Positions 1-15,004 of a stretch of DNA of 24,000 nucleotides are shown here, one piece after another. Under the pieces are notes generated by a model. The model did no database searches, was not told the origin of the DNA, and saw only the letters and a program-made list of their open reading frames with translations. The stretch is taken from NCBI RefSeq assembly GCF_024054565.1, contig NZ_JAMXLR010000095.1, positions 165,966 through 189,965 on the forward strand, given 5' to 3'. Position 1 is the stretch's first letter. Every line of letters begins with the position of its first letter. The position numbers were made by a program, and so were the translations under genes. Source of the DNA: Aeoliella straminimaris. GTDB lineage: Bacteria; Planctomycetota; Planctomycetia; Pirellulales; Lacipirellulaceae.

Positions 1-1323
1 GTGTCGCAACCTGAGCTGCACATTCTGATTGTCGACGACGAACCGCCCCAACGCGAGTTGCTGGGCGACGTTGTGCAGTCGCTCGGCATGTCGCCCGTCG
101 AGGTCGAATCGGGCGAGGCGGCGCTCGAGTTAATTGCTCGCGAACCACCCGACATGGTGTTGCTGGATGTGCGTCTGGGGGGTATTAGCGGCCTGGAGAC
201 GTTGCGCCGCATCCGCCAGAGCCTGCCCGACCTGCCCGTGCTATTGATCACCGGTTTCGCCGATGTGCGTCAGGCGGTAGAGGCCGTAAAATGTGGCGCG
301 GACGATTACCTGAGCAAACCGATCGACCTCGAAGAACTGCAGACCGCCATTACCGACGCGCTGGGCCGTGCGGCCACGGATGGTCAATCGGACCAACACC
401 CAGATCTGCCCGCTGGTGTGGTGGCCGAAAGCGGTGCGATGCGGGCGGTGCTGCGCACTGCGGCATTGGTTGCCCCTTCCGACGCGCCAGTATTGATCAC
501 TGGCGAAAGCGGGGTGGGCAAGGAGGTAGTGGCCGATCTGATCCATCGTTGGAGCGATCGAGCCGCTCAGCCGCTGATTGCCGCCAACTGCGCCGGATTG
601 CCCGAGACGCTGATCGAGAGCGAACTGTTCGGGCATCTCAAGGGCGCGTTCACGGGAGCTTCCGCTACGCGCGAGGGCTACTTTCGCGCTGCCGAGGGTG
701 GAACGCTTTTTCTCGACGAGATTGGCGAACTGCCTATGCACCTGCAGCCCAAACTGCTCCGCGCATTGGAAGCCAAGGAGGTGACACCCGTCGGCGCCGA
801 TCGCCCAGTGGCCGTCGACGTGCGATTGGTCGCGGCGACTAACCGAGAACTCGAGCAGGCCGTGCAGAACAACACATTTCGCGAAGACCTGTACTACCGG
901 CTGAACGTCGTTGAGTTGCAGGTCCCACCGCTACGCGAGCGGCGCGAGGACATTCCGGCCTTGGTCCGTCGGTTGGGCTCCGAGTTCGTGGGGGCTGCGG
1001 TTCGCTTGTCGCCACAGGCACTGAATTGCTTGCTCGCGTACCAGTGGCCCGGCAACGTCCGCGAGCTTCGCAATGCCATTCAGCGGGCCTGCCTGCTTTG
1101 TCGTGGCGACGTCGTCATGCCCGAACATCTGCCCGCGAAGGTGCAAGCTCTGGCGGTCGAGGCCGATGGGGACGAGCAAGGCAGGCTGTCGCAAGTCGAG
1201 CGGGCCACGATCCTGGCGACGCTGGACGAGTGCGACGGCAATCGCACGCAGGCGGCCCGCAAGTTGGGCATCAGCCGGCGAGGTCTTATCTACAAGTTGC
1301 GGGCCATGGACTACGACGGCTAG
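1..1323 (+). CDS. sigma-54-dependent two-component response regulator (NtrC/ZraR-like: receiver + AAA+ sigma-54 interaction domain + Fis-type HTH)
   Basis: 440-aa ORF. N-terminal receiver (ILIVDDE...DMVLLDVRL...SKP). Walker [15 protein letters not shown] sigma-54 contact loop, Walker [10 protein letters not shown]-terminal [23 protein letters not shown]. The GTG start sits at window base 1, so the true start cannot be verified. Confidence 0.9.
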
Positions 1324-1506
1324 AGCGTTCTTCTCTTCCGAGTTCTGCTTTGGCACGCAATGTGTACTGTCTAGGTTTGCCACGCGAAGGCGAGTCGATC
1401 GTGCAAACACTCGTCATCCGTGGGACTCGCGGGTGTGCAAATCTTGCAGCCCCGAGAGCCAGTTCGTGGCAAAACCAGTCCAACTCTATGCATAAGGAGC
1501 CAAATC

Positions 1507-2223
1507 ATGAGAAACTTCACCCTTCCAACGCTTGTCGCACTGCTACTGTGCGGAGCACTCACCTCGGACGCCTTGGGGCAGAGGGGCGCGGGCCGCCGCC
1601 AGGGCGTCGCGCAGCAGGTCGATAAGCCAACGCTCGAAACCTTCACTGGTACCGTTGCCGAGATCAAAATCGGCCCCTGCGAAGCCACCACGGGTCGCGG
1701 GCTGATCGGCGTGCACTTGATACTGGACGGCGACGATGATGTCACCCGCGAGGTGCATCTCGGTCCTCAAGCCGCGGTGCAGGACATTGTCGACAGCATT
1801 GCCATTGGACAGACTGTCTCCATCACGGGCTTCCATACGGATGAACTGGCCGAGAACGTGATGGTTGCCAAGAGCATCACCGATGACCAACAAACGTTTG
1901 ACCTGCGCAACGACTCGCTGCAGCCGGTATGGGCGGGCGGCGTTGGTCGTGGAGCTGGGCGAGGACCCGGAGCGCAATTCGCTGGCCGGGGGCGCGGGCG
2001 AGGCGCCGGCCGTGGAATGGGCCCGGGAATGCAACAAGGTTGGGGACGTGGCATGGGGCCCGGTCGCGGCCAAGGTTGCTCTTGGGCGCCGAACTCGGGC
2101 CGATATATGCAGGGCCGCGGAATGGGTCCCGGCCAAGGCAGAGGTCGGCAAGGCAACGGATTTGGCGGCGGTCGCGGCTACGGCCAGCCCCCGCAGCCCG
2201 CTGTGGTAAACCCTGCCAACTAA
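1507..2223 (+). CDS. secreted protein with a C-terminal Gly/Arg/Met-rich repeat tail (GRGMGPG-type repeats); function unknown
   Basis: ATG at 1507 is preceded by AAGGAG (about 1494-1499), preferred over the upstream in-frame start at 1420. Signal-peptide-like N-terminus MRNFTLPTLVALLLCGALTSDALG. Three near-identical GRGMGPG-coding units lie in 1990-2130. A terminator follows. Confidence 0.75.
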   Translation: MRNFTLPTLVALLLCGALTSDALGQRGAGRRQGVAQQVDKPTLETFTGTVAEIKIGPCEATTGRGLIGVHLILDGDDDVTREVHLGPQAAVQDIVDSIAIGQTVSITGFHTDELAENVMVAKSITDDQQTFDLRNDSLQPVWAGGVGRGAGRGPGAQFAGRGRGRGAGRGMGPGMQQGWGRGMGPGRGQGCSWAPNSGRYMQGRGMGPGQGRGRQGNGFGGGRGYGQPPQPAVVNPAN

Positions 2224-2267
2224 CCCGGCCCGCATCACAATTCGTCAGCAAGTGAATGTCTCAACCA

Positions 2268-2304
2268 AGGCGAGGCCCGCCCAGCGGGCCTCGCCTGTTT
2301 TGTT
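2268..2304 (+). terminator. rho-independent terminator
   Basis: Perfect 13-bp GC-rich stem AGGCGAGGCCCGC / GCGGGCCTCGCCT with a CCA loop, followed by GTTTTGTT, 45 nt after the stop at 2223. Confidence 0.8.
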
Positions 2305-2589
2305 GGGTATCCGAGGGGCAAACCCTAGTCCAAAGGCCGGCTATGCAGCGGCGTCGTAATTCTCCGCTTTCATCCAATTTGGCGACCCTCTTCCGGGGCG
2401 AACCGGCACTTGGTTAGGATGAGAATGGGGGTCCGAAATCTGCCGGATTTTGGGAACTTTCGATCCCGACTCGACGCCTAACCCTAGTAACGACTTGCGG
2501 GGGGAACGCACGGGAAAACGCCACGGAGGCCCCATGGCCCGCTTTTCTCGCCGTTGATGCTGCACGGCTAACTTGGAAAGATCATTCTA

Positions 2590-5500
2590 ATGAAACGCTC
2601 GTCCTTCGTTGTTTGCTTCGCTGCGCTCGCTTGTTCTTGCGTGACCGCCCTGCCCTCGCTGGCCGCCGACGAAATTGGCTTTGTCGAAACGTTTGCGCTG
2701 GCTGAGGACCGGGCCGAGGTACTCGGGCAGTTGATACCGGGCACCGAGGAGTACTATTTTTATCACGCGCTGCATTATCAGAACACAAAACAGTCGGAGA
2801 AGCTTGACGACTTGCTGGACAAATGGCGCAAGCGAGTTGAAGCCTCTGAACTCCGCAATCTGATTGTGCGTCGGCAACGACTGCTAGCGTACGACAGCGA
2901 TCCGAAAGCGACCCTCGATTGGCTACGCAACGAACTGGGTATTCAATTTGCCCACCAGCGCAGTCCCGAGCCCGGGCAGAAACCAAACTTGCCCACCGTG
3001 CTCGACCCTGCGGTAATCAGCCGACAGGCATACATTCAGCGGGCCATCGACCAGCATGACAACCTGGCTGGCTTCCAGGACACGGCGCTCGACTGGATAC
3101 TCCGCGATGGCGGCGTGGAACTCACCTCCGGCCGGCGGAGGGCCCTGTTGTCACGCATCGATCGTCCCGACTACGACAATCTGGTCGAGTTGATTGCGGC
3201 TGACCTCCGCACGAAGGAAAGCCGTGGTTTTGGCGAGTTCAAGATCCACCGGCAACTGCTCAAATCACAACTGGACGCGCTGCTGGACTTGAAGCCCGAC
3301 CTCCGCACCAATTCGAACTTCATTCATACCAATCTGGTGAAGCTCGCGCCGAACGCCGATGCCGATCCGAGCGATACGGAAGTCCGGGAGGCATATCTGC
3401 AGCGCATGTGGGCGTATGTGAAAGATTTGCCACCGGCTCACAATTCGCTGAAGGCGAACATCCTGTACGCCTTGCTCGATCATCAGCGGCAAGCCGGAAA
3501 GTACAATCGCACGCTGTTCGAGGTCTACGTGAAGCAGCCCCGGCCGATGCCCTATATGGATCCCCGCTACCTGAACAGCGACCCGGTGCGGCGCTACCAG
3601 GTGAATCTGGGACAGGACTTCTCGCCCATCACGCGATGTCCGCCGGTGGGCGACGATACGACCCTGGTGCGAGACTATCTGCTGCATTTCTTGGTTGAAC
3701 AGGACGACATTGCGCCATGGAGCGAGTGGATACGCGACACTTTCGTCAGACCGCTACTGGCCGAGGCGAAAATTGTCTCGGGTGGTCCGGATTCCGAGCG
3801 ATGGGCGTCGATGCTCACGCCATCGGCCTACCAACAGCTGAAGGACCGGGTCGACATCGATCTGGCGGTGACAAACCCACAGCAGTTCGACATGGATGAC
3901 GAAGTCACGTTGGCGGCGGACATCAAGAATGTCGACAAGCTGCTGGTCAAGGTCTATGAGGTCAACGCCTTTAACGTCTATCTCGCTACGCACCGAGAGG
4001 TAAGCACCGGTCTGGAGTTGGATGGCCTGGTGGCTGGTTCGCAGCAGGTATATGCGTACAGCGAAACCCCTTTCCGACGTGTGCGGCGCGAGTTTACGTT
4101 CCCTGAACTCGAAGGCAAACGCGGCGTCTGGATGATCGAGCTGATCGGTGGCGGGCGAAGCAGTCGCGCCCTGGTCCGGAAGGGCGGACTGCACTATCTC
4201 GCGCGGCAAGGCGTGGCGGGCACGGTGCTGTCGATTCTGGACGAACAAGACAATCCGGCTCCCAAGGCATCGGTCTGGCTAGCTGGCCGCGAGTACAAGC
4301 CCGACGAACAAGGTGGCATTGTCGTTCCGTACTCCTCCGACCCGGGCCGCCACCCCATCATCCTCCGCGATGCTGATGGCTTCGCTTCGCTAGCCTATTT
4401 TCAGCATCCTGCGGAATCCTACACGCTGGACGTTGGTTTCTTCGTCGACCGCGAGGCGCTGCTGGTTGGCGGTGAGGCTACCCTGCTGGTCCGCCCCGAT
4501 TTTCGCATCAACGGCGTGGCCGCTCCTTTGGACTTGCTGGAGCAGGTGAAATTGACGATCACGTCGACCAACCTCGACGGCATCAGCACTACGGCCGAGG
4601 TGGACGATTTCCAACTTCACAGCGACAAGGAAACCGAGCACCAGTTCGCCGTACCGCCTCGGCTGGCCACACTGAGTTTCCAGCTCAGTGCTCAGGTCGA
4701 GCAGGTGAGCACCGGCAAGAAGGTCTCGCTGTCCAGCAATGGCCTGCGCAGCGTCAACGGCATCGACAAGGAGGAATCGACCTACGAACTCCACCTAAGC
4801 CACATGGACGGGCACGCCGTAGTTGAAGTGCTGGGGAAGAACGGCGAGCGTCTGGCGGACCGCGCCGTATGGCTCGTGTTTCAACATCGCGACTTCAAGA
4901 CAAACCACGGTGTGTCTCTCAAATCCGATGAAGCGGGGCGAATCGATCTTGGCACCCTGCCCGACATTGTGCGGGTGACGGCCAATGCCGATGGCATCGA
5001 CGAGGTGGCGTGGGACATCGCTGCAGGAGAAGACGCCCACAGCCGCCCCGCAGTGCTGCAGACCGTGCAGGGCGAGGCGCTACACGTACCCCACCTAGGC
5101 GGTGCGAAACTGTCGCGGGCCGACTACTCCCTGCTAGCAGTTCGTCGCGGCAACTTTACAACCGACCAGTTCGGCAAGCTCTCCGTGGCCGGCGGATTCC
5201 TGTTAATTGAAGGCCTTGAACCGGGCGACTACAGTCTAAAGATCAAACGCGAAAACCGTGTCATTCCGATTCGCGTCACGGCCGGCAAAATGGTGGGACG
5301 ATTCGCTGCTGGCAAGCATCGAATTCTCGAAACAGCCCACCGACTGCCTCTGCATATTACCGCCGTGGCCGACGACAACGGTGACTTGCTGGTCAAGCTC
5401 GCCAACGCCGAACAGGGTACGCGGGTACATGTGCTGGTATCGAGGTTCAAACCGGCGTTTCCACTGCACGGGGCTCTGGGTGCCGCGTACGATCCCACCT

Positions 5501-8500
5501 TGCTGACTATTACTCGTCCCGCATTTCGCAATGTCTATCTGAGCGGTCGCGACATAGGCGACGAGTATCGCTACATCCTCGATCGCCGCGATCAGACAAC
5601 CTACCCGGGCAACATGCTCGATCGACCAGGATTGCTACTCAATCCGTGGGAGCTCCGTGACACCGATACGGGGAAGCAACAGGCCGCCACTGGTGGCGAG
5701 TATCAGGACGCGTCGGGCAGCACACCGTCTTCAGAAATGGCCATGGAGCCGCCACCGGCAGAAGCCCGGCATCAACTTGCGGACTTGTCGAACCTCGACT
5801 TTTTGAAGCATGCCGGCGTGGTGCTCGCGAATCTCACACCTGGTAAAGACGGCATCGTCCGCATTCCCAAGGAGCAGCTCAGCGATCGCCAGGACGTACA
5901 TATCGTGGCCATCGGCTCCACCGACACGGTGTTCCGACATGTGTCGTTGCCCGATGCTGGTGCCGCATTCCGCGACCTCCGTTTGGCTAAGCCGCTTGAT
6001 TTAAAGAAGCACTTCACCGAACGCAAGGAGGTGGCTCTGCTGGGCGAGGGCGACCAACTTGAGATTCCGGATGTTCGCGCGGCCGAAATGCAGGGGTACG
6101 ACACGCTGGCTTCGATCTATAGCTTGTACATGACCCGCTCGGGCAATCCCACGCTGGCCGAATTCGCCTTCGTGCTGAAATGGGATGCATTGGACGCTGC
6201 CGAGCAACGTTCGGAGTACTCGAAGTACGCCTCGCACGAGTTGAGTTTCTACCTGAGTCGTAAGGATCCTGAGTTCTTCGAGCAGGTTATTCTGCCCTAC
6301 TTGAAAAACAAGAAGGACAAGACCTTCATCGATCACTATTTGTTGAAGGACGACCTGAGCGAATTCTTGGATCCGTGGCGGTATGGCCGACTGAACATGG
6401 CCGAGCGCGTGCTGCTGGCCGACCGTCTGGGCGACGCGGAGCGCGACGCGACCAGGCGTCACCTGGAGGACCTGTTCGCCCAGTTGCCGCCCAACCCGTC
6501 CAAGAGTCAGAGCGAGTTCCTGACCGCGTTGCGAGGCCGATCGCTCACTGCCGATTCTGGAGTGGGTGGCGTAACGCTCAGCTTCGACAGGTTTGGCGGT
6601 TTCAGGGATGGCGAAGCGGACGCGGATGCGGAGCACTTGACCGATCGTTTTGACGCCGCCGCGAGTGCGCGGGCAGTCGACCAACCCACCTTGGCAGCGG
6701 GGCCGCCGCATGCAGGAAGCCCTATCTCTGGTGACAAATTGGCTGAACTAGAGAGTCTGGAAGCGGCTCAACGTGTGAGGAGTGCCGTGGAAGAGAGAAA
6801 GAAAGATCTGAAGCTACAAGAGCTCAACGCGGATTTGAGTTTTGCCTATGATCGCGCAGGTGGTCGCCGTGCTGGGGAGTTAGAACTGTTGCGTCGCAAG
6901 CGGGTGCGTGGTTTTTATCGCAGGATGTCGGCGGTGAAAGAGTGGGCCGAAAATAACTACTACCACCTGCCCATCGAGCAGCAGCTGGCGGACCGCGTAG
7001 CGATCAATGCCTTCTGGCGCGACTATGCCGCGCACCTGGCAGACAACGCCGACGAGCCATTCCTCTCGAAGCACGTGGCTGTGCCTACTTCGAACTTCAG
7101 CGAGATGATGCTAGCCCTGGCGGTACTCGACCTGCCCGTCGAGGCCGCCGAAGCCGAGGTAACCACCGACGCAGCGTCCCTGACCTTGAAGGTGGGTTCG
7201 CCTACCATTGTGTTCCACAAGCAAATTCAGGAAGCTGCCGAAAGCGACGACAAAACACCTGTGTTAGTGGGGCAGAATTACTTCCGCCACGGCGATCGGT
7301 ACGTGCAGGTCGATGGCGAGCAGCGTGACAAGTACGTCACCGACGAGTTCCTGCCTGGCGTCGTGTACGGGTGCCAGGTTGTGGTGACCAATCCCACTTC
7401 GGCCACGCAGAAACTCGATGTCTTGACACAAATTCCCGAGAAGGCAATGCCGGTCTTGGGTAGCAAGCAGACTTACAGCTTGCCGGTGCAACTTGGTCCC
7501 TATGCCACGCAAAAGCTGGAGTATTATTTTTACTTCCCGCGTACTGGCGACTTTGCTCATTACCCGGTTCAAGTCGCCCGCGACGAGCAACTGGCCGCCT
7601 GGGCCGAGCCCTTCACCTTTCACGTAGTCGAGCAGTTAAGCCGCATCGACAAGGCGTCATGGGACTACCTGTCGCAGTGGGGTACGTCCGACGAGGTGCT
7701 GAGCTACCTTCAGCAGAACAACATCGAACGCATCGATCTGGCCCGCATCGCATGGCGGATGCGGGATGTCGATTTCTTTAAGCAGACGCTCGAGCTGCTA
7801 GCCAAGCGGCACGTGTACAACCCCGTGCTGTGGAGCTACGCGATTTACCACAACCAACTTGACCGGATCCAACAGTATCTGCGTACGAACGACGAGTTTC
7901 TCCGCCGTTTTGGTGAGCGGATTGATTGCACGCTGGTCACGGTCGATCCGGTGGAGCGGCATTGGATTCAGCACCTGGAGTACAGCCCGCTGGTAAATGC
8001 CCGCGCCCATCGCTTGGGCCGCGATCGCAAGATCGTGAATGCCGCATTCGGCGAGCAGTACCATCGCTTGATGAACGTGCTGCGGTACAAGTCCAGGCTA
8101 TCCGAAGAGGACAAGCTCGACGTGGTGTATTACCTGTTCCTGCAGGACCGCATCGGCGAGGCTCTGGAGTGGTTCGACGAAATCGACGCCGAGAAACTGC
8201 CCACGGCCTTGCAGTTGGATTACCTGCGATGCTACGTGGCGTTCTACCGCGAGCAACCCGAGGCGGCCGAACAGATCGCCAAGCAGTATGCCGATTACCC
8301 TGTGGACCGGTGGCGAGCGCGATTCGCCAACGTGCTCTCGCAGATTGGCGAAATCCGTGGCGGCCAGGTAGCCGATAGCGGTGGTGACGAAGACCAACGC
8401 GAAGGGCTGCAGGACGAATTGGCTTCCACCGAGCCAGCACTCGAAATGAAGGTTGAGAACGGTCAGGTGCAGTTGACCTACCAGAATCTCGAGCAGGTGA

Positions 8501-9003
8501 CTGTGAACTACTACGAGATGGACGTCGAGTTCCTGTTCAGTTCGAACCCCTTCGTCGAAAGCGATGCCGATCGCTTTGGTGTGATCCAGCCGAATCGCAG
8601 CGATTCCGTCGAGCTGCCCGAGCAAGGCGACCGGCACGCCGTGGATATTCCGCAGGAGTTCACCGGCAAGAATGTTCTGGTCGAAGTGCTGGGCTCTGGC
8701 CGCCGCATCGCGCAGGCTTACTACGCCAACGATCTGAAGGTGCAGCTTGTTGAGCAATACGGCCGCTTGCAGGTCCGCGACGATAAGACGAACAAGCCGC
8801 TGTCGAAGGTGTACGTCAAGGTTTATGCTCGCACGCCCCAAGGCACCCGGTTTTTCAAGGATGGGTACACCGACTTGCGTGGTAAGTTCGACTACACAAG
8901 TCTCAACACCGACGACATCGGCGGTGTCAGCGAGTTTGCCGTGCTGGTGATGAGCAGCGACCACGGGGCCGTAGTGTTGACGGCCAAGCCGCCACAGCAA
9001 TAG
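2590..9003 (+). CDS. giant secreted protein (2137 aa), function unknown; C-terminal carboxypeptidase-regulatory-like/beta-sandwich-like segment
   Basis: Single uninterrupted 6.4-kb ORF. N-terminal signal peptide MKRSSFVVCFAALACSCVTALPSLAADE. The C-terminal stretch KVYVKVYARTPQGTRFFKDGYTDLRGKFDY resembles prealbumin-fold (CarboxypepD_reg-like) domains. No catalytic motif was recognised by eye. Confidence 0.85.
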   Translation: MKRSSFVVCFAALACSCVTALPSLAADEIGFVETFALAEDRAEVLGQLIPGTEEYYFYHALHYQNTKQSEKLDDLLDKWRKRVEASELRNLIVRRQRLLAYDSDPKATLDWLRNELGIQFAHQRSPEPGQKPNLPTVLDPAVISRQAYIQRAIDQHDNLAGFQDTALDWILRDGGVELTSGRRRALLSRIDRPDYDNLVELIAADLRTKESRGFGEFKIHRQLLKSQLDALLDLKPDLRTNSNFIHTNLVKLAPNADADPSDTEVREAYLQRMWAYVKDLPPAHNSLKANILYALLDHQRQAGKYNRTLFEVYVKQPRPMPYMDPRYLNSDPVRRYQVNLGQDFSPITRCPPVGDDTTLVRDYLLHFLVEQDDIAPWSEWIRDTFVRPLLAEAKIVSGGPDSERWASMLTPSAYQQLKDRVDIDLAVTNPQQFDMDDEVTLAADIKNVDKLLVKVYEVNAFNVYLATHREVSTGLELDGLVAGSQQVYAYSETPFRRVRREFTFPELEGKRGVWMIELIGGGRSSRALVRKGGLHYLARQGVAGTVLSILDEQDNPAPKASVWLAGREYKPDEQGGIVVPYSSDPGRHPIILRDADGFASLAYFQHPAESYTLDVGFFVDREALLVGGEATLLVRPDFRINGVAAPLDLLEQVKLTITSTNLDGISTTAEVDDFQLHSDKETEHQFAVPPRLATLSFQLSAQVEQVSTGKKVSLSSNGLRSVNGIDKEESTYELHLSHMDGHAVVEVLGKNGERLADRAVWLVFQHRDFKTNHGVSLKSDEAGRIDLGTLPDIVRVTANADGIDEVAWDIAAGEDAHSRPAVLQTVQGEALHVPHLGGAKLSRADYSLLAVRRGNFTTDQFGKLSVAGGFLLIEGLEPGDYSLKIKRENRVIPIRVTAGKMVGRFAAGKHRILETAHRLPLHITAVADDNGDLLVKLANAEQGTRVHVLVSRFKPAFPLHGALGAAYDPTLLTITRPAFRNVYLSGRDIGDEYRYILDRRDQTTYPGNMLDRPGLLLNPWELRDTDTGKQQAATGGEYQDASGSTPSSEMAMEPPPAEARHQLADLSNLDFLKHAGVVLANLTPGKDGIVRIPKEQLSDRQDVHIVAIGSTDTVFRHVSLPDAGAAFRDLRLAKPLDLKKHFTERKEVALLGEGDQLEIPDVRAAEMQGYDTLASIYSLYMTRSGNPTLAEFAFVLKWDALDAAEQRSEYSKYASHELSFYLSRKDPEFFEQVILPYLKNKKDKTFIDHYLLKDDLSEFLDPWRYGRLNMAERVLLADRLGDAERDATRRHLEDLFAQLPPNPSKSQSEFLTALRGRSLTADSGVGGVTLSFDRFGGFRDGEADADAEHLTDRFDAAASARAVDQPTLAAGPPHAGSPISGDKLAELESLEAAQRVRSAVEERKKDLKLQELNADLSFAYDRAGGRRAGELELLRRKRVRGFYRRMSAVKEWAENNYYHLPIEQQLADRVAINAFWRDYAAHLADNADEPFLSKHVAVPTSNFSEMMLALAVLDLPVEAAEAEVTTDAASLTLKVGSPTIVFHKQIQEAAESDDKTPVLVGQNYFRHGDRYVQVDGEQRDKYVTDEFLPGVVYGCQVVVTNPTSATQKLDVLTQIPEKAMPVLGSKQTYSLPVQLGPYATQKLEYYFYFPRTGDFAHYPVQVARDEQLAAWAEPFTFHVVEQLSRIDKASWDYLSQWGTSDEVLSYLQQNNIERIDLARIAWRMRDVDFFKQTLELLAKRHVYNPVLWSYAIYHNQLDRIQQYLRTNDEFLRRFGERIDCTLVTVDPVERHWIQHLEYSPLVNARAHRLGRDRKIVNAAFGEQYHRLMNVLRYKSRLSEEDKLDVVYYLFLQDRIGEALEWFDEIDAEKLPTALQLDYLRCYVAFYREQPEAAEQIAKQYADYPVDRWRARFANVLSQIGEIRGGQVADSGGDEDQREGLQDELASTEPALEMKVENGQVQLTYQNLEQVTVNYYEMDVEFLFSSNPFVESDADRFGVIQPNRSDSVELPEQGDRHAVDIPQEFTGKNVLVEVLGSGRRIAQAYYANDLKVQLVEQYGRLQVRDDKTNKPLSKVYVKVYARTPQGTRFFKDGYTDLRGKFDYTSLNTDDIGGVSEFAVLVMSSDHGAVVLTAKPPQQ

Positions 9004-9295: not shown

Positions 9296-10945
<1,650 letters not shown>

Positions 10946-10970
10946 CTCGACCTCCTTTCAGTGAAAAATA

Positions 10971-11088
10971 CCCGACGAAGCTTGGGCCGAGTTGCCGCGT
11001 CACAGACGCTGGAAGCTCCCGCTTCCGTGGCTACCGACGGGTGTTACCCCGACTCGGTTCGTGGATGTACTCCGCACCGACAGTCGGA
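10971..11088 (-). ncRNA. Y-RNA-like module 5, embedded in the rsr 5' leader (degenerate distal domain)
   Basis: The 5' strand UCCGAC-UG-UCGGUGC-GGAG-UACAU (from 11088) and the 3' strand CUCGG-N10-GUCGGG (to 10971) match the family pattern. The distal part keeps a decayed T-arm (CGGG-GUAACA-CCCG) and hairpins GGAAGC-GGGA-GCUUCC and GCGUC-UGU-GACGC. It is followed by UAUUUUU and then the rsr RBS. Confidence 0.5.
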
Positions 11089-11116
11089 CGTGTCTGGTAG
11101 TTGTTTATCAAAGGAT

Positions 11117-11256
11117 CCCGACGAGGGATTGCATTAGAGACTTTACGGCGAGCTACCATTGCTCCACGGCGCGACCGTTTCCTCGAAATGGCGCCGACGG
11201 GACTCGAACCCGTAACCTCCGGCGTGTGATGCATGTACTCCAACACGGCAGTCGGG
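11117..11256 (-). ncRNA. Y-RNA-like module 4 with a circularly permuted tRNA-like domain (YrlA-type architecture)
   Basis: Closing stem CCCGAC (11256-11251) / GUCGGG (11122-11117), plus UGGAG/CUCUA. The distal domain reads 5'->3': T-arm ACGGG-UUCGAGU-CCCGU, closed acceptor-like hairpin CGGCGC...GCGCCG (inner UUUC-GAG-GAAA), then U-G, then D-arm GAGC-AAUGGUA-GCUC. Confidence 0.65.
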
Positions 11257-11276
11257 ATATACGTGTGCGATAAATT

Positions 11277-11406
11277 GATCGACGAGGGGGCGACCAGAGA
11301 TATTTCTCATTGCTCTACCAACTGAGCTACATCGACGCCTGGCGCCGACGACGGGGATCGAACCCGTGACTCATGAGTTAACATGTACTCTAATCTGCAG
11401 TCGATC
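11277..11406 (-). ncRNA. Y-RNA-like module 3 with a circularly permuted tRNA-like domain (YrlA-type architecture)
   Basis: Three-segment closing stem: GAUCGAC (11406-11400) / GUCGAUC (11283-11277), UAGAG/CUCUG, and CUCAU/AUGAG. The distal domain is T-arm ACGGG-UUCGAUC-CCCGU, a closed acceptor-like hairpin CGUCGGCG..CGUCGAUG (8-9 bp), then U-A in the tRNA position 8-9 register, then D-arm GCUC-AGUUGGUA-GAGC. Confidence 0.7.
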
Positions 11407-11423
11407 GTAGGTTTGTGTTGAGT

Positions 11424-11585
11424 CCGACGAAGTGGTGGCGAGAGTTGCGTTTACGATCGTCCGTGCCCCCGTATGGAGGTCGTTGACTGGCCCCTTTGTC
11501 TCGGAGAGACTTTGGCGCCGTTCACTAGTCCGTCGCCCGACATCGCTACCTTAGGACCGTCATGTACTCCCAACCGTCAGTCGGG
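11424..11585 (-). ncRNA. Y-RNA-like module 2 (family closing stem, degenerate distal domain)
   Basis: 5' strand CCCGAC-UG-ACGGUUG-GGAG-UACAU (from 11585); 3' strand CUCUC-N11-GUCGG (to 11424). The interior holds an acceptor-hairpin-like GGCGCC-AAA-GUCUC-UCC-GAGAC-AAA-GGGGCC but no clean T or D arms. Confidence 0.5.
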
Positions 11586-11595
11586 CTATGTCAAA

Positions 11596-11669
11596 GACCA
11601 GCCAACGAAGATTTGGTTCGGATAAGGTCATCATTTCAGGATGTAGTCCGAACCGGCAGTTGACTGGTC
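11596..11669 (-). ncRNA. Y-RNA-like module 1 (minimal, stem-loop only)
   Basis: Self-contained hairpin. GACCAGUCAAC (11669-11659) pairs over 11 bp with GUUGGCUGGUC (11606-11596), and an inner helix GGUUCGGA/UCCGAACC follows. It carries the family motifs UG...GGAC-UACAU and CUUC-GUUG. It starts 2 nt after the tRNA-Cys discriminator. Confidence 0.6.
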
Positions 11670-11671
11670 AA

Positions 11672-11743
11672 AGACGCCGGTGGGAATCGAACCCACGAAA
11701 AACTGCTTTGCAGACAGCCGCCCGACCATCAGGCTTCAGCGTC
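11672..11743 (-). tRNA. tRNA-Cys(GCA), divergent (A8 instead of U8)
   Basis: Hand-folded cloverleaf, 72 nt. Acceptor GACGCUG/CGGCGUC. D-arm GCCU-GAUGGUC-GGGC. Anticodon arm GCUGU-CUGCAAA-GCAGU. Variable loop UUUUC. T-arm GUGGG-UUCGAUU-CCCAC. U73 discriminator, which is the Cys identity element. No encoded CCA. Confidence 0.7.
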
Positions 11744-11748
11744 TTGGC

Positions 11749-11848
11749 GAATGCGGAAGTGGGAATTCGGAATGCGGAATCTAACGCAAGCGAGCGTTAA
11801 GTATCGCCTGCGGGTGATTCCGCCTTCCGCATTCCGAACTCCGCATTC
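11749..11848 (-). other. about 100-nt branched inverted-repeat spacer between tRNA-Arg(GCG) and tRNA-Cys
   Basis: Outer 9 bp GAAUGCGGA/UCCGCAUUC. Inner 11 bp GGAAUGCGGAA/UUCCGCAUUCC. Apical hairpins GCGG-AAUCAC-CCGC and UAACGC-UCGCUU-GCGUUA. Built from repeated GAATGCGGAA units. Confidence 0.6.
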
Positions 11849-11852
11849 AGAG

Positions 11853-11924
11853 CAGCCCGTCCAGGAATCGAACCTGGCCTTCGACCTTCGCACGGTCGCG
11901 TGCAATCCTCTACACTCACAGGCT
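11853..11924 (-). tRNA. tRNA-Arg(GCG), divergent (G8 instead of U8)
   Basis: 72-nt cloverleaf. Acceptor AGCCUGU/ACGGGCU (7 bp). D-arm GUGU-AGAGGAUU-GCAC. Anticodon arm CGACC-GUGCGAA-GGUCG. Variable loop AAGG. T-arm CCAGG-UUCGAUU-CCUGG. Discriminator G. Confidence 0.7.
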
Positions 11925-11927
11925 ATA

Positions 11928-11995
11928 GGAGTATTCGGGGATCAGGATTCAGGGAAAGAAGGACGCGCGTCCTCCCCCTGATCCCTCACCCCTCC
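11928..11995 (-). other. about 68-nt structured hairpin spacer
   Basis: GGAG/CUCC plus a perfect 9 bp GGGAUCAGG/CCUGAUCCC enclose AGGAC-GCGC-GUCCU and GGG/CCC pairings. It lies between the Arg(UCG)-like element and tRNA-Arg(GCG). Confidence 0.55.
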
Positions 11996-12001
11996 ACAAA
12001 G

Positions 12002-12071
12002 TACCTCGCCAGGGAATCGAACCTCGTCTTGCAGATTCGAAGTCTGCGATGCTATCCAGCACACCCACACG
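12002..12071 (-). pseudogene. tRNA-Arg(UCG)-like element, probably decayed
   Basis: Perfect anticodon arm GCAGA-CUUCGAA-UCUGC and a UUCGAUU T-loop. However, the T-stem has an A.C mismatch, the D-arm is truncated (GUGC-UGGAUA-GCAU), and I could not pair the acceptor strands. Confidence 0.35.
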
Positions 12072-12079
12072 GCGTGTAA

Positions 12080-12168
12080 TATTTCGACCTGGAATCGAAC
12101 CAGGACTTGGACTTTAGGAGAGTCCTGTGCGATCCGCCCCGTTTCCAATAAACACTGTCCATCGAGAT
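12080..12168 (-). pseudogene. tRNA-Arg(CCU)-like element with an expanded D region
   Basis: Perfect T-arm CCUGG-UUCGAUU-CCAGG and anticodon arm GGACU-CUCCUAA-AGUCC. The acceptor ATCTCGA/TCGAAAT pairs 6 of 7. The D stem GUGU/GCAC would enclose a 21-nt loop. Total 89 nt. Confidence 0.4.
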
Positions 12169-12389
12169 TTGAGGCCGATCCTCGTGCGCCGGGAGACTTG
12201 CACTAGCATCACCCGGCCACCTGTAGTGACTTCGCTTGAACAACAAAGGTTCATTAAAGGTGATGCGAGCATCACTGCCGCTTCTGAGAATATGCTTGAC
12301 ACTTTACCAGCCGGAATCGAAAATGCGGGCATTCAACAATCATTACGCTGTTACTCATCTCGGTCAGCATACTACTTGGAGCCGAGCTA

Positions 12390-13694
12390 ATGACGCTGAG
12401 CAAAAAACTGACTTACCGGTTAAATCCGTTGCACCTAAAACGCTTGGTTCGAGTTGCAGTACTTGTTGCGTTCTATTTGCATTTTAGTTCTAAGGATTTT
12501 GTCTTAGGGATGTCGCCTGAATCCGCATTGGCTACTGTGGAACTGGTGGCAGATTTCGATACTCAGATTCCAGAAAAGCTGTCTAATTTTTCGAGCCTAG
12601 GTCAACGAGCCGCTATCAGCGAATCATCGGTATTCTTCACCGGCAATAACGGGCTCTACAAGGCCGATGGCGACTCACTTGTTCGGATCGTCGATAACAG
12701 CACGCCAATTCCAGGTAAATCATCGAACTTTGTAGGAGTGTCAAACGAGACTTTATTAGTGGATGATGGTGACGTGGCCTTTGATGGCACAGAAATCTTC
12801 GGATTTCGAAACGGCATCTATGTTTATAGCTCGTCCACAGACAGTATCACGTTCATAGCTGACGAAGACTCGGCGGTGCCAAATGGTACTGGGAGCTTTG
12901 CCGGCTTTCGCGCGCCTTCTATCAACAATGGAAATGTCGCCTTCTTTGGGTTCAGTGACCCGTCGTCCCAGAATGGCATATACACCACGCTGGGGGGACA
13001 ACTCCGCGTTGTTGCAGACACCAATACTATTATCCCTGGCGGCTCCGGACCGTTCAGTGATCTACTCGGATTCCCCGTCATTGAAGGCGATAGCATCACA
13101 TTTGTAGGAAGACGCTTCAATGAAAGCCAGGGAATCTACAGAGAGTCAGGTGGCACACTGTCTACTCTCTATGATCTGACCACTTCCATCCCAGGTGGTT
13201 CGGGAAGTTTTACAAGTTTCCGAAACAATGAGTTGAATGTCGAAGGCGGTTCTTTGGCCTTTATGGGCGGTGGAGCAGGCGGATACTTTGGAGTCTTTAA
13301 GGATGTGGGAGACGGTCTTACTCTAGTCGCCGACTCGAGTACGCAGGCTCCCGGTGGGACAAATACCTTCCTCGCTATTAGCAACGTTTCATTGGACGGC
13401 GAAAATGTTGCCTTTATTGGGAGCGATGGTGGTACTCGTGGAATCTATACAGATGCTCTCGGCCAATTAACAAAGATTCTAGATACGTCGGATATCATTG
13501 ATGGTCGACAGCCCAGCGAATTTCACATTGGCCGGGACTCCTTGGTTGGGAATCAGTTGGCATTTCGGGTGCGTTTTACTGACAACACTGAGAGCATCTA
13601 TGTCGCAACTCTTGTTCCTGAACCATCTACCCTGGTCGCATTCCTATTGGCCACGGCGTGTTTAGTTATGTGCCGAAATTCCTTTAGGCATTAG
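12390..13694 (+). CDS. PEP-CTERM-anchored repeat protein (about 7 repeats of a roughly 50-aa GIY...AD..T.IPGG.G.F...G..VAF.G unit)
   Basis: 434-aa ORF. C-terminal VPEPSTLVAFLLATACLVMCRNSFRH is a PEP motif followed by a TM helix and a basic tail. The N-terminus is hydrophobic. The sequence is visibly more AT-rich than its flanks. The start codon is uncertain (alternative Met41). Confidence 0.85.
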   Translation: MTLSKKLTYRLNPLHLKRLVRVAVLVAFYLHFSSKDFVLGMSPESALATVELVADFDTQIPEKLSNFSSLGQRAAISESSVFFTGNNGLYKADGDSLVRIVDNSTPIPGKSSNFVGVSNETLLVDDGDVAFDGTEIFGFRNGIYVYSSSTDSITFIADEDSAVPNGTGSFAGFRAPSINNGNVAFFGFSDPSSQNGIYTTLGGQLRVVADTNTIIPGGSGPFSDLLGFPVIEGDSITFVGRRFNESQGIYRESGGTLSTLYDLTTSIPGGSGSFTSFRNNELNVEGGSLAFMGGGAGGYFGVFKDVGDGLTLVADSSTQAPGGTNTFLAISNVSLDGENVAFIGSDGGTRGIYTDALGQLTKILDTSDIIDGRQPSEFHIGRDSLVGNQLAFRVRFTDNTESIYVATLVPEPSTLVAFLLATACLVMCRNSFRH

Positions 13695-14973: not shown

Positions 14974-15004
14974 GAAAAAAGCTCCTCGAATTCGAGGAGC
15001 TTTT
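14974..15004 (-). terminator. rho-independent terminator downstream of tRNA-Lys
   Basis: GCTCCTCG-AATT-CGAGGAGC (14981-15000) is followed on the minus strand by UUUUUU (plus-strand A-run 14975-14980). It lies 4 nt after the tRNA-Lys 3' end. Confidence 0.85.

Follow-up and report, generated by a model that had tools for sequence, protein, structure and literature searches.

What lies between the last gene of a tRNA array and the gene for the Ro60 orthologue Rsr in the planctomycete Aeoliella straminimaris? The window that we analysed, a stretch of 24,000 nucleotides from contig NZ_JAMXLR010000095.1 (positions 165,966 to 189,965), contains both, and a preliminary description made from its sequence had noticed five tandem modules between 10971 and 11669 that resemble Y RNAs of the Ro60/Rsr type. 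That description was silent on the strand, on the adjoining rsr gene, on the tRNA-like domains of the third and fourth modules and on the 23S-rRNA-like domain of the second. We find that the region very probably encodes five distinct bacterial Y RNAs, non-coding partners of Rsr, on the minus strand. The five copies are present as described and run head to tail from 11669 to 10969, spanning the interval from the 3' end of tRNA-Cys to 24 nucleotides before the rsr start codon; their coordinates had been given correctly to within 2 nucleotides, and the strand, previously left unstated, is minus. The predicted modules are:

11669-11596, minus strand: M1, about 70 nucleotides, a minimal hairpin-type Y RNA module
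11589-11421, minus strand: M2, about 170 nucleotides, subtype A of a 23S-rRNA-like class, with a Y stem around an inner domain of about 125 nucleotides
11409-11276, minus strand: M3, about 135 nucleotides, YrlA type
11260-11115, minus strand: M4, about 146 nucleotides, YrlA type
11092-10969, minus strand: M5, about 124 nucleotides, a Y stem around three hairpins

All five share one architecture, in which a closing stem formed end to end encloses a module-specific inner ('effector') domain, and these inner domains differ among M1 to M5. On the 5' side of every module, a helix-1 strand ending in (C/U)(G/A)AC is followed by UG, a helix-2 strand and UACAU. On the 3' side, the helix-2 partner leads through a pyrimidine-rich stretch ending in CUUC or CCUC to GU(C/U)G and the helix-1 partner; a downstream CYUCGUYG partner was found for each of the five copies. 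The pattern ACTGN{5,12}TACAT occurs five times in the window, always within the array and on the minus strand, where shuffled sequences lead one to expect 0.58 matches and none of 100 shuffles reached five. Duplex folding reproduced the pairings previously proposed for both helices, with cognate energies across the five modules of -7.8 to -13.0 kcal/mol for helix 1 and -6.5 to -13.2 kcal/mol for helix 2; non-cognate combinations of strands were mostly, though not all, weaker. Helix 1 of M2 contains one C.A mismatch, and helix 2 of M5 is the weakest of the five.

Is this stem maintained by selection for pairing? We scanned the window and 80 related rsr loci for the 5' and 3' motifs with complementary flanks, requiring ACUG, ACAU and CYUCGU, and picked non-overlapping modules by duplex energy (interval scheduling with filters). 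The census comprises 306 modules on the strand of rsr and 24 on the other, most loci having two to nine. In a comparison that needs no alignment, the two strands of one module paired much better with each other than did strands drawn from different classes (helix 1, -11.3 versus -4.7 kcal/mol; helix 2, -8.3 versus -5.7 kcal/mol). Applied to 96 non-identical stem-only constructs from the related loci, each consisting of a 5' strand, a GAAA linker and a 3' strand, RNAalifold returned a helix 1 of 7 bp with compensatory changes in five pairs, one of which is, for example, CG in 30 constructs, AU in 23, UA in 18 and GC in nine. Helix 2 was not recovered by RNAalifold from this stem-only alignment, because its register shifts by 1 nucleotide between classes, and we used an explicit structure and the cognate and non-cognate duplex energies instead. 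With helix 2 made explicit, covariation scored 0.484, whereas shuffles gave 0.217 (none of 500 reached 0.484) and slid partners at most 0.26. The covariation first claimed from five copies persists when orthologous loci are aligned. All five window copies carry ACUG, UACAU and CYUCGUYG; in class alignments obtained by way of the inner domain, UCCAU or UGCAU at times replaces UACAU. Invariance of motifs within the census is partly circular, because the scan required ACUG, ACAU and CYUCGU, but covariation of the flanking helices was not built into it.

The inner domains of the census fall into a tRNA-like cluster (n = 145, of which 141 have a T-loop), a 23S-like cluster, an M5 group and several small hairpin groups. 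The order along the Pirellulales loci is conserved: tRNA-Arg(TCG), tRNA-Arg(GCG), tRNA-Cys(GCA), an M1-type hairpin, an M2-type module, tRNA-like modules, an M5-type module and then rsr. Several genomes have two rsr loci (L048/L054 in CP197414.1, L043/L053 in Rhodopirellula maiorica, L021/L051 and L069/L080 in our numbering), and in CP197414.1 each of the two has its own Y RNA array, including a 23S-like module.

Described bacterial Y RNAs are bound by Rsr, are encoded near rsr, number at least two per species and have a terminal Ro60-binding stem (PMC4201824); their second module, described as effector-binding, is often tRNA-like, giving a two-module model (10.1101/312249). The locus fits this description. 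A comparison with YrlA-type models was one of the checks proposed at the outset: at relaxed thresholds, the Rfam YrlA model (RF02553) matched M3 (35.5 bits, E 1.1e-5) and M4 (34.9 bits, E 1.6e-5) from end to end, both under the gathering score, and it did not match M1, M2 or M5. In the alignment to the YrlA consensus, CGAcUGC falls on CgaAUGC, G(A/G)GUAC on gaaCUAc, and CUUCGUCG, or CUCGUCG, on cUuGucG. Only M3 and M4, and not M1, M2 or M5, contain the inner elements of YrlA in their YrlA order, namely a T arm whose loop is GGUUCGA, then an acceptor-like stem-loop, then a D arm:

11366-11352, minus strand: T arm of M3 (this and the next two from the Rfam alignment and matches to E. coli tRNAs)
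11351-11330, minus strand: acceptor-like stem-loop of M3
11330-11312, minus strand: D arm of M3
11213-11197, minus strand: T arm of M4 (from the Rfam alignment and the match to E. coli tRNA-Asp)
11165-11150, minus strand: D-like arm of M4

The T and D arms of M3 match E. coli tRNAs in BLAST searches, and M4, which has an orthologue in locus L001, agrees with E. coli tRNA-Asp at 39 of 49 positions from the 3' side of the anticodon stem through the T arm. Neither ARAGORN nor the Rfam tRNA model called a tRNA inside 10969-11669. The metazoan Y_RNA model (RF00019) found no match at E up to 10 in 10800-12200, bearing out the earlier remark that the metazoan GGUCCGA/UUGACU helix has another sequence.

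The array is flanked by the following elements:

9296-10945, minus strand: rsr, 549 amino acids, the Ro60 orthologue (Pfam TROVE and vWA_Ro60; PDB 2NVO)
10958-10951, minus strand: Shine-Dalgarno-like AAAGGAGG, ahead of the rsr start codon and after M5
11671-11744, minus strand: tRNA-Cys(GCA), the final gene in a row of co-oriented tRNA genes

Among solved structures, the window's Rsr comes closest to D. radiodurans Rsr (2NVO, E 3.7e-19 at full length) and next to the Ro60 proteins of phage, human and Xenopus. We found 80 orthologues in Planctomycetota, mostly in Pirellulales, at 71-89% identity, the closest (89%) being in a Bythopirellula metagenome-assembled genome. The tRNA array comprises ten tRNAs on the minus strand between 11671 and 15081, M1 begins 1-2 nucleotides past the 3' end of tRNA-Cys, and no terminator-like site was seen between tRNA-Cys, the Y array and rsr. 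The adjoining rsr gene, the YrlA matches and the covarying stem together indicate that the tRNA-like modules M3 and M4 are new members of the known bacterial Y RNA kind, and they support the original reading of all five as modules of the Ro60/Rsr type, with binding by Rsr predicted from sequence.

What, then, do the other inner domains resemble? That of M2 contains a piece of 23S rRNA, from helix 69 (H69) and its junction with helix 70 (H70), a part of the ribosome that belongs to the intersubunit bridges B2a and B2b. The elements concerned are:

11563-11543, minus strand: AUGACGGUCCUAAGGUAGCGA, identical at 20 of 21 positions to E. coli 23S nucleotides 1916-1936 (H69 3' strand and H69/H70 junction)
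11541-11528, minus strand: GNRA hairpin GUCGG-GCGA-CGGAC, with pairs that covary (21 modules of subtype A, 10 of subtype B)
11464-11451, minus strand: ACGGACGAUCGUAA, the 3' strand pairing with CGGUC of the 23S-like segment to give an H69-like stem with its strands permuted

Compared with the E. coli rrnH operon, AUGACGGUCCUAAGGUAGCGA gave a BLAST E-value of 3e-4 and a shuffle-test value of 0.001. A BLAST search of M2 against all E. coli genomes returned nothing at E up to 10, because a match of 21 nucleotides is drowned in 28 Gb, and the single rrn operon was compared instead. Profiles of the inner domains, searched with nhmmer against 1.35 Mb, found 23S nucleotides 1909-1940 with subtype B (E 1.7e-5) and 1916-1975 with subtype A (E 0.0054), the best other target not of M2 type reaching no better than E 0.9. 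In the reverse direction, E. coli 23S nucleotides 1900-2075 matched M2-type modules only, in 670 kb of loci. A covariance model (R1) that we built without any rRNA, from 24 subtype-B domains belonging to several lineages, recognised authentic 23S nucleotides 1906-1963 with 39.7 bits (E of about 3e-8) and scored the window's subtype-A copy at 27.2 bits. The Rfam LSU model matched neither M2 nor subtype B in cmscan at E up to 10.

M2-type modules come in two architectures. In subtype A, seen in the window and 22 other loci, UACAU runs straight into the H69 3' strand and the H69 loop is replaced by the junction with the Y stem; in subtype B, seen in ten loci, the whole hairpin CGUAACUAUGACG (23S equivalent CCGUAACUAUAACGG) is present together with CCUAAGGUAGCGA. 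With one substitution allowed, about 42 of the 80 loci contain CCUAAGGUAGCGA, in every case on the rsr strand and about 23-30 nucleotides after a 5' stem motif. The folds of subtypes A and B are 97% and 95% paired, with 20 and 23 compensatory pairs, respectively; none of 500 shuffles equalled them, and slid controls gave 0.1 at most. Although the predicted folds of both subtypes leave CCUAAGGUAGCGA largely unpaired or in weak pairs only, the sequence hardly varies between lineages. The DNA of subtype B, CGTAACTATGACGGTCCTAAGGTAGCGA (for example at 2270-2300 of L037), is nearly the I-CeuI homing-endonuclease site in 23S rDNA, TAACTATAACGGTCCTAAGGTAGCGAA, and such loci might be cut.

From its position after CCUAAGGUAGCGA, we infer that the GNRA hairpin of M2 is the equivalent of 23S H71; nhmmer aligned it to 23S nucleotides 1945-1961. 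The helix between CGGUC and a distal GGCCG in subtype A (RNAalifold, alignment A2, columns 31-35/163-167) is 99% paired, shows compensatory changes in three of its five pairs, and mirrors the H69 stem down to the G.U pair. Its flanks read ACGGAC-GGCCG-UA(A/G)C, to be compared with ACGGC-GGCCG-UAAC at 23S nucleotides 1901-1914, a likeness of ACGGACGAUCGUAA that was not significant in a shuffle test. The rebuilt H69 stem and the resemblance of the flanks suggest that the Y stem sits where the H69 loop would be, much as the Y stem of YrlA replaces the end of the tRNA anticodon stem. In subtype B and in the cross-lineage alignment, the domain is closed by a conserved irregular helix, GCGUGCCCACUGCC...GGUAAGAGCG, which by eye resembles the base of H68 (23S nucleotides 1831-1846, GCCUGCCCGGUGCCGG, and 1896-1907, GGUAAACGGCGG). 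A more extended, collinear likeness of M2 to 23S rRNA, taking in H72, H73 and H68, was considered and rejected: the gapped local alignment reached a z of about 2.7, segment shuffles were not significant, and a hidden Markov model (HMM) of the 3' part missed H67/H68. Since this extended likeness is not significant, the idea of a permuted 23S domain rests only on the rebuilt H69 stem and the weak likeness of its flanks.

The 23S-like class is found outside the planctomycetes as well. We scanned metagenomes for CCTAAGGTAKCGA followed after a gap of 3-7 nucleotides by GGRKYRAY, the gap length excluding genuine 23S rRNA, and obtained 63 loci; some are chance matches in coding sequence, and about 40 have an H69-like core. 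Among these are versions with the core on canonical Y stems, AGCGAAUGCC...GGAACUACAC and GCGGGCCGAAAGG, that fit the published motif GNCGAAN0-1G (CGAAUGC or CCGAAAG), and sensitive searches found rsr on the same contigs where these were long enough. Among the loci of this set (L082-L144), L139, L121 and L109 have an rsr whose product is about 24% identical to the window protein (measured for L121), with the 23S-like RNA 185-200 nucleotides downstream of rsr; in L131, L134 and L143 the identity is 43-45%, and each of L131 and L134 has six to eight canonical modules in an array, YrlA-type and 23S-like ones among them. In motif-forward coordinates, the regions concerned are 5824-6700 in L131, 1644-2900 in L134, 6364-6900 in L139 and 3712-4250 in L121. 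The rsr/Y loci of L139 and L143 also lie inside tRNA arrays. One further contig, L145 (IMGVR_UViG_3300031949_000013, 94 kb, classed as viral; the same contig as L105), has a 23S-like module at about 2946-3005 on the minus strand and two YrlA-like modules, all of them inside a series of about 30 tRNAs; we detected no rsr up to 6 kb from its Y modules.

In Rfam 15 nothing overlapped the 23S-like modules of other lineages at E below 0.01, and M1, M2 and M5 of the window had no match at E up to 10. The full-text literature that we searched describes no rRNA-like Y RNA, no planctomycete Y RNAs and no non-coding RNA that copies 23S H69; many subscription reviews lay outside this search, and an earlier description is possible. 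The 23S-like class and the array as a whole appear to be a new variant of the Y RNA kind, of which we found no description.

M1 and M5, the two ends of the array, have inner domains of other kinds. Their helices and hairpins are:

11669-11659 and 11606-11596, minus strand: M1 helix 1, GACCAGUCAAC paired with GUUGGCUGGUC (duplex folding)
11656-11647 and 11622-11615, minus strand: M1 helix 2, CCGGUUCGGA paired with UCCGAACC (duplex folding)
11053-11036, minus strand: GNRA hairpin of M5 (this and the next two from the class alignment)
11026-11011, minus strand: M5 hairpin GGAAGC-GGGA-GCUUCC
11009-10997, minus strand: third hairpin of M5

M1 has an apical loop of about 18-25 nucleotides, and M1-like modules are the first of the array, right after tRNA-Cys, in the related loci. 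Modules of the M5 class invariably close the array, stopping about 19-24 nucleotides before the rsr start codon, and their alignment across 12 loci has covarying stems and the conserved GGAAGC-GGGA-GCUUCC hairpin. A by-eye suspicion that M5 imitates 5S rRNA or 16S h45 was dropped after BLAST and class HMMs gave no match to the E. coli operon; by the same two methods, neither M1, M5 nor any other class apart from M2 resembles 5S, 16S or 23S rRNA of the E. coli rrn operon.

How might such an array work? The predicted RNAs would be co-transcribed with the upstream tRNA genes and the downstream rsr, because no terminator-like site intervenes, M1 begins next to tRNA-Cys, synteny is conserved and there are precedents: in D. 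radiodurans, Yrn2, tRNA-Asp and Yrn1 lie on a polycistronic precursor upstream of rsr, and in M. smegmatis the Y RNAs upstream of rsr are processed from one precursor (PMC4201824). As in the three species studied, tRNA-processing and other RNases would release RNAs of 70-170 nucleotides, the 5' end of M1 arising from 3' processing of tRNA-Cys. By analogy, Rsr would bind the common stem of each RNA, and the variable domain may tether or gate Rsr, with any bound exonuclease such as PNPase, toward a different partner in each case. The 23S-like segment of M2 suggests a ribosomal target for some Ro60 particles; the partner of M2 would be something that recognises the H69-H71 region at the subunit interface of 23S rRNA. 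Candidates include the 30S subunit itself, through bridges B2a, B2b and B3, as well as recycling or splitting factors and the enzymes that modify H69.

A bolder version of this proposal, which we consider improbable as a whole, holds that M2-type RNAs are a widespread, undescribed class of Y RNA whose effector is a miniature, circularly permuted 23S domain IV junction, H68-H69-H70-H71, that either docks Rsr and an exonuclease on the 30S subunit or recruits a factor that binds H69. The junction would have been grafted onto the Ro60-binding stem at the H69 loop in subtype A and at the H68/H69 boundary in subtype B, in parallel with YrlA, a tRNA grafted at its anticodon stem. The copied face of the 50S subunit meets the 30S subunit in bridges B2a, B2b and B3, and M2 might accordingly occupy the 50S docking site of free or damaged 30S subunits, near the 16S 3' end, in 16S rRNA quality control or in decay during starvation; alternatively, it might recruit an H69-binding factor such as RRF, RluD or HflX. 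Taken together, the tRNA-like and 23S-like modules would be a set of adaptors for different parts of the translation apparatus. The permuted mini domain IV is something that we only infer.

Several observations weigh against our interpretation of the array as Y RNAs with a ribosome-directed member. The scores of M3 and M4 with the YrlA model are about half of the gathering score of 69 bits, and so do not reach the threshold; clear YrlA-like modules of other lineages score 55-64 bits, likewise under 69, so this threshold is a strict one. The planctomycete stem motif, N(C/U)(G/A)ACUG, is one position off the GNCGAAN0-1G that is published for the 5' end of the terminal stem of bacterial Y RNAs (CGACUG versus CGAAnG, an A to C change; PMC4201824). 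The single-sequence minimum-free-energy fold of M5 lacks the closing stem, and its helix 2 is weak. Significant likeness to 23S rRNA is limited to nucleotides 1909-1936, the other 100 or so nucleotides of M2 failing shuffle tests against H68, H71 and H72, and covariance model R1 does not align the second hairpin of M2 well to H71. Lastly, the association of D. radiodurans Rsr with ribosomal subunits did not need Yrn1 (PMC4201824).

Other explanations of the same sequences have to be set beside the Y RNA interpretation, and the one that fares best accepts it. The modules could be Y RNAs whose variable domains serve mainly to protect against nucleases by folding very stably, the 23S-like sequence being kept for the sake of the fold only. 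This possibility was raised for the tRNA-like domain by the discoverers of these RNAs (PMC4201824), and no partner is known for any YrlA. Yet CCUAAGGUAGCGA, predicted to be largely unpaired, is nearly invariant, a degree of conservation beyond what folding needs, and a like argument has been made for the conserved bases of the D and T stems of YrlA (PMC4201824; 10.1101/312249). We think it unlikely that stability is the main function.

Somewhat less probable still is that the modules are cis-acting elements of the rsr leader, with Rsr binding the stems in its own 5' untranslated region and so autoregulating translation or mRNA stability. The array is indeed continuous with rsr, with no terminator between them, and the M5 class keeps its constant distance from the start codon, beside the Shine-Dalgarno sequence. 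However, a role in the leader cannot explain modules that lie downstream of rsr in other lineages, or on a viral contig that has no rsr in the surrounding 6 kb; a simple operator has no need of elaborate, class-specific and covarying inner domains; and the Y RNAs of three studied species are stable products of processing (PMC4201824). One role need not preclude the other, and M5 could serve in both.

Two further alternatives are very unlikely. Decayed tRNA genes or tRNA-derived repeats that end the tRNA array and have nothing to do with Rsr would account for the position of the modules right after tandem tRNAs and for T and D arms in M3 and M4 very like those of real tRNAs, but not for the want of any ARAGORN or Rfam tRNA call, the absence of tRNA features from M1, M2 and M5, a closing stem with ACUG, UACAU and CUUCG that is no feature of tRNAs and covaries across the 96 constructs, or a linkage to rsr that is seen in several lineages whose gene orders differ. 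A functionless piece of a 23S gene (pseudogene debris, or the relic of a target site for a homing endonuclease or intron) caught between Y RNA genes would suit the fact that only about 21-32 nucleotides of M2 are demonstrably 23S-like, a stretch that coincides with the I-CeuI site of 23S rDNA, but the segment occupies the same place within a covarying Y stem in about 42 of 80 loci, without exception on the strand of rsr, the remaining part of the domain is likewise conserved and covarying, and the core is kept in two architectures and in at least three further lineages with other Y-stem motifs, all of which points to purifying selection on an RNA and not to decay.

The remainder of the window adds a setting for the array. 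A phage origin, suggested by the cluster of tRNA genes, was rejected: a phage megablast gave a tRNA-Lys match only, the neighbouring genes (aconitase, a sigma-54 activator and a CLC channel) are chromosomal, and the window is Pirellulales chromosome. The tRNA arrays of related loci (L001, L002, L007, L021, L022 and L039; positions 1-3200) reach 25-29 genes within 3-4 kb. Directly after tRNA-Lys(TTT), a strong terminator-like hairpin of 12 bp followed by a T run (14977-15004, minus strand) implies that this tRNA may be transcribed separately from the remaining array. The spacers between tRNA-Cys, tRNA-Arg(GCG) and tRNA-Arg(TCG) contain long inverted repeats (11745-11851 and 11925-12000), with GAAUGCGGAA repeats opposite UUCCGCAUUC and also GGGGAUCAGG...CCUGAUCCC; they give weak, spurious matches to miRNA families in Rfam and may have a role in the structure or processing of the tRNA operon. 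An open reading frame (ORF) of 434 amino acids with a DUF7453 domain (12390-13694, plus strand) splits the array between tRNA-Arg(TCG) and tRNA-Trp. On the other side, an ORF of 2137 amino acids (2590-9003, plus strand), with no Pfam match at E up to 0.001, is convergent with rsr and lies about 290 nucleotides from its 3' end.

The roles of bacterial Ro60 and Y RNAs, and the reason why effector domains imitate tRNA, have been open since 2014; ribosomes or translation factors were put forward speculatively as partners by the discoverers, who found none (PMC4201824). The Aeoliella locus and its relatives indicate that Y RNAs can occur as arrays in which five to nine different modules follow a set order on one predicted Rsr-binding scaffold, at the end of the main tRNA operon of the cell. 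One class of module copies a universally conserved piece of the 23S subunit interface, not a tRNA, and this class is conserved across distant rsr lineages and is also present on a phage-like contig. A second, independent case of mimicry of a translation RNA makes the idea of an adaptor to the translation machinery directly testable, and the motifs supply a concrete annotation signature for RNAs that Rfam currently misses.

Among known systems, the nearest is YrlA (RF02553; PMC4201824, 10.1101/312249), which is likewise encoded beside rsr, has a terminal stem with CGA-xUGC, CUAC and CUUG-UCG, and shares with M3 and M4 the order of its inner arms. It differs in its stem sequence, CGAAUG where the planctomycete modules have CGACUG, and CUUCGUCG contains one C more. 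YrlA-like RNAs have been reported singly or in pairs at a locus, as opposed to the five to nine tandem modules here, of which M1, M2 and M5 lack a tRNA-like domain. In the D. radiodurans rsr locus, as in that of A. straminimaris, Y RNAs precede rsr in its own orientation and are interspersed with tRNA genes; the Deinococcus stem has a metazoan-like motif, whereas here the stem is of YrlA type and the Y RNAs follow an array of ten tRNA genes (up to 29 in relatives). M1 recalls YrlB of S. Typhimurium and M. smegmatis and Yrn2 of D. radiodurans, each mainly a long hairpin and an extra Rsr-bound RNA beside YrlA or Yrn1 (PMC4201824), a likeness judged from descriptions and not from sequences; the loop of M1 is not small and pyrimidine-rich as theirs is. 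Set against H69 and the H69/H70 junction of 23S rRNA itself (E. coli nucleotides 1906-1936), M2 agrees at 20 of 21 positions over 1916-1936 and subtype B keeps the whole hairpin, but the M2 domain amounts to only about 125 nucleotides in a Y stem, nucleotides 1937-1944 are absent, and a GNRA tetraloop takes the place of the H71 loop. In a wider sense M2 resembles tmRNA and the tRNA-like structures of viruses, non-coding RNAs that copy a conserved piece of a translation RNA, presumably for the same partners; those copy tRNA, whereas M2 copies H69 of 23S rRNA.

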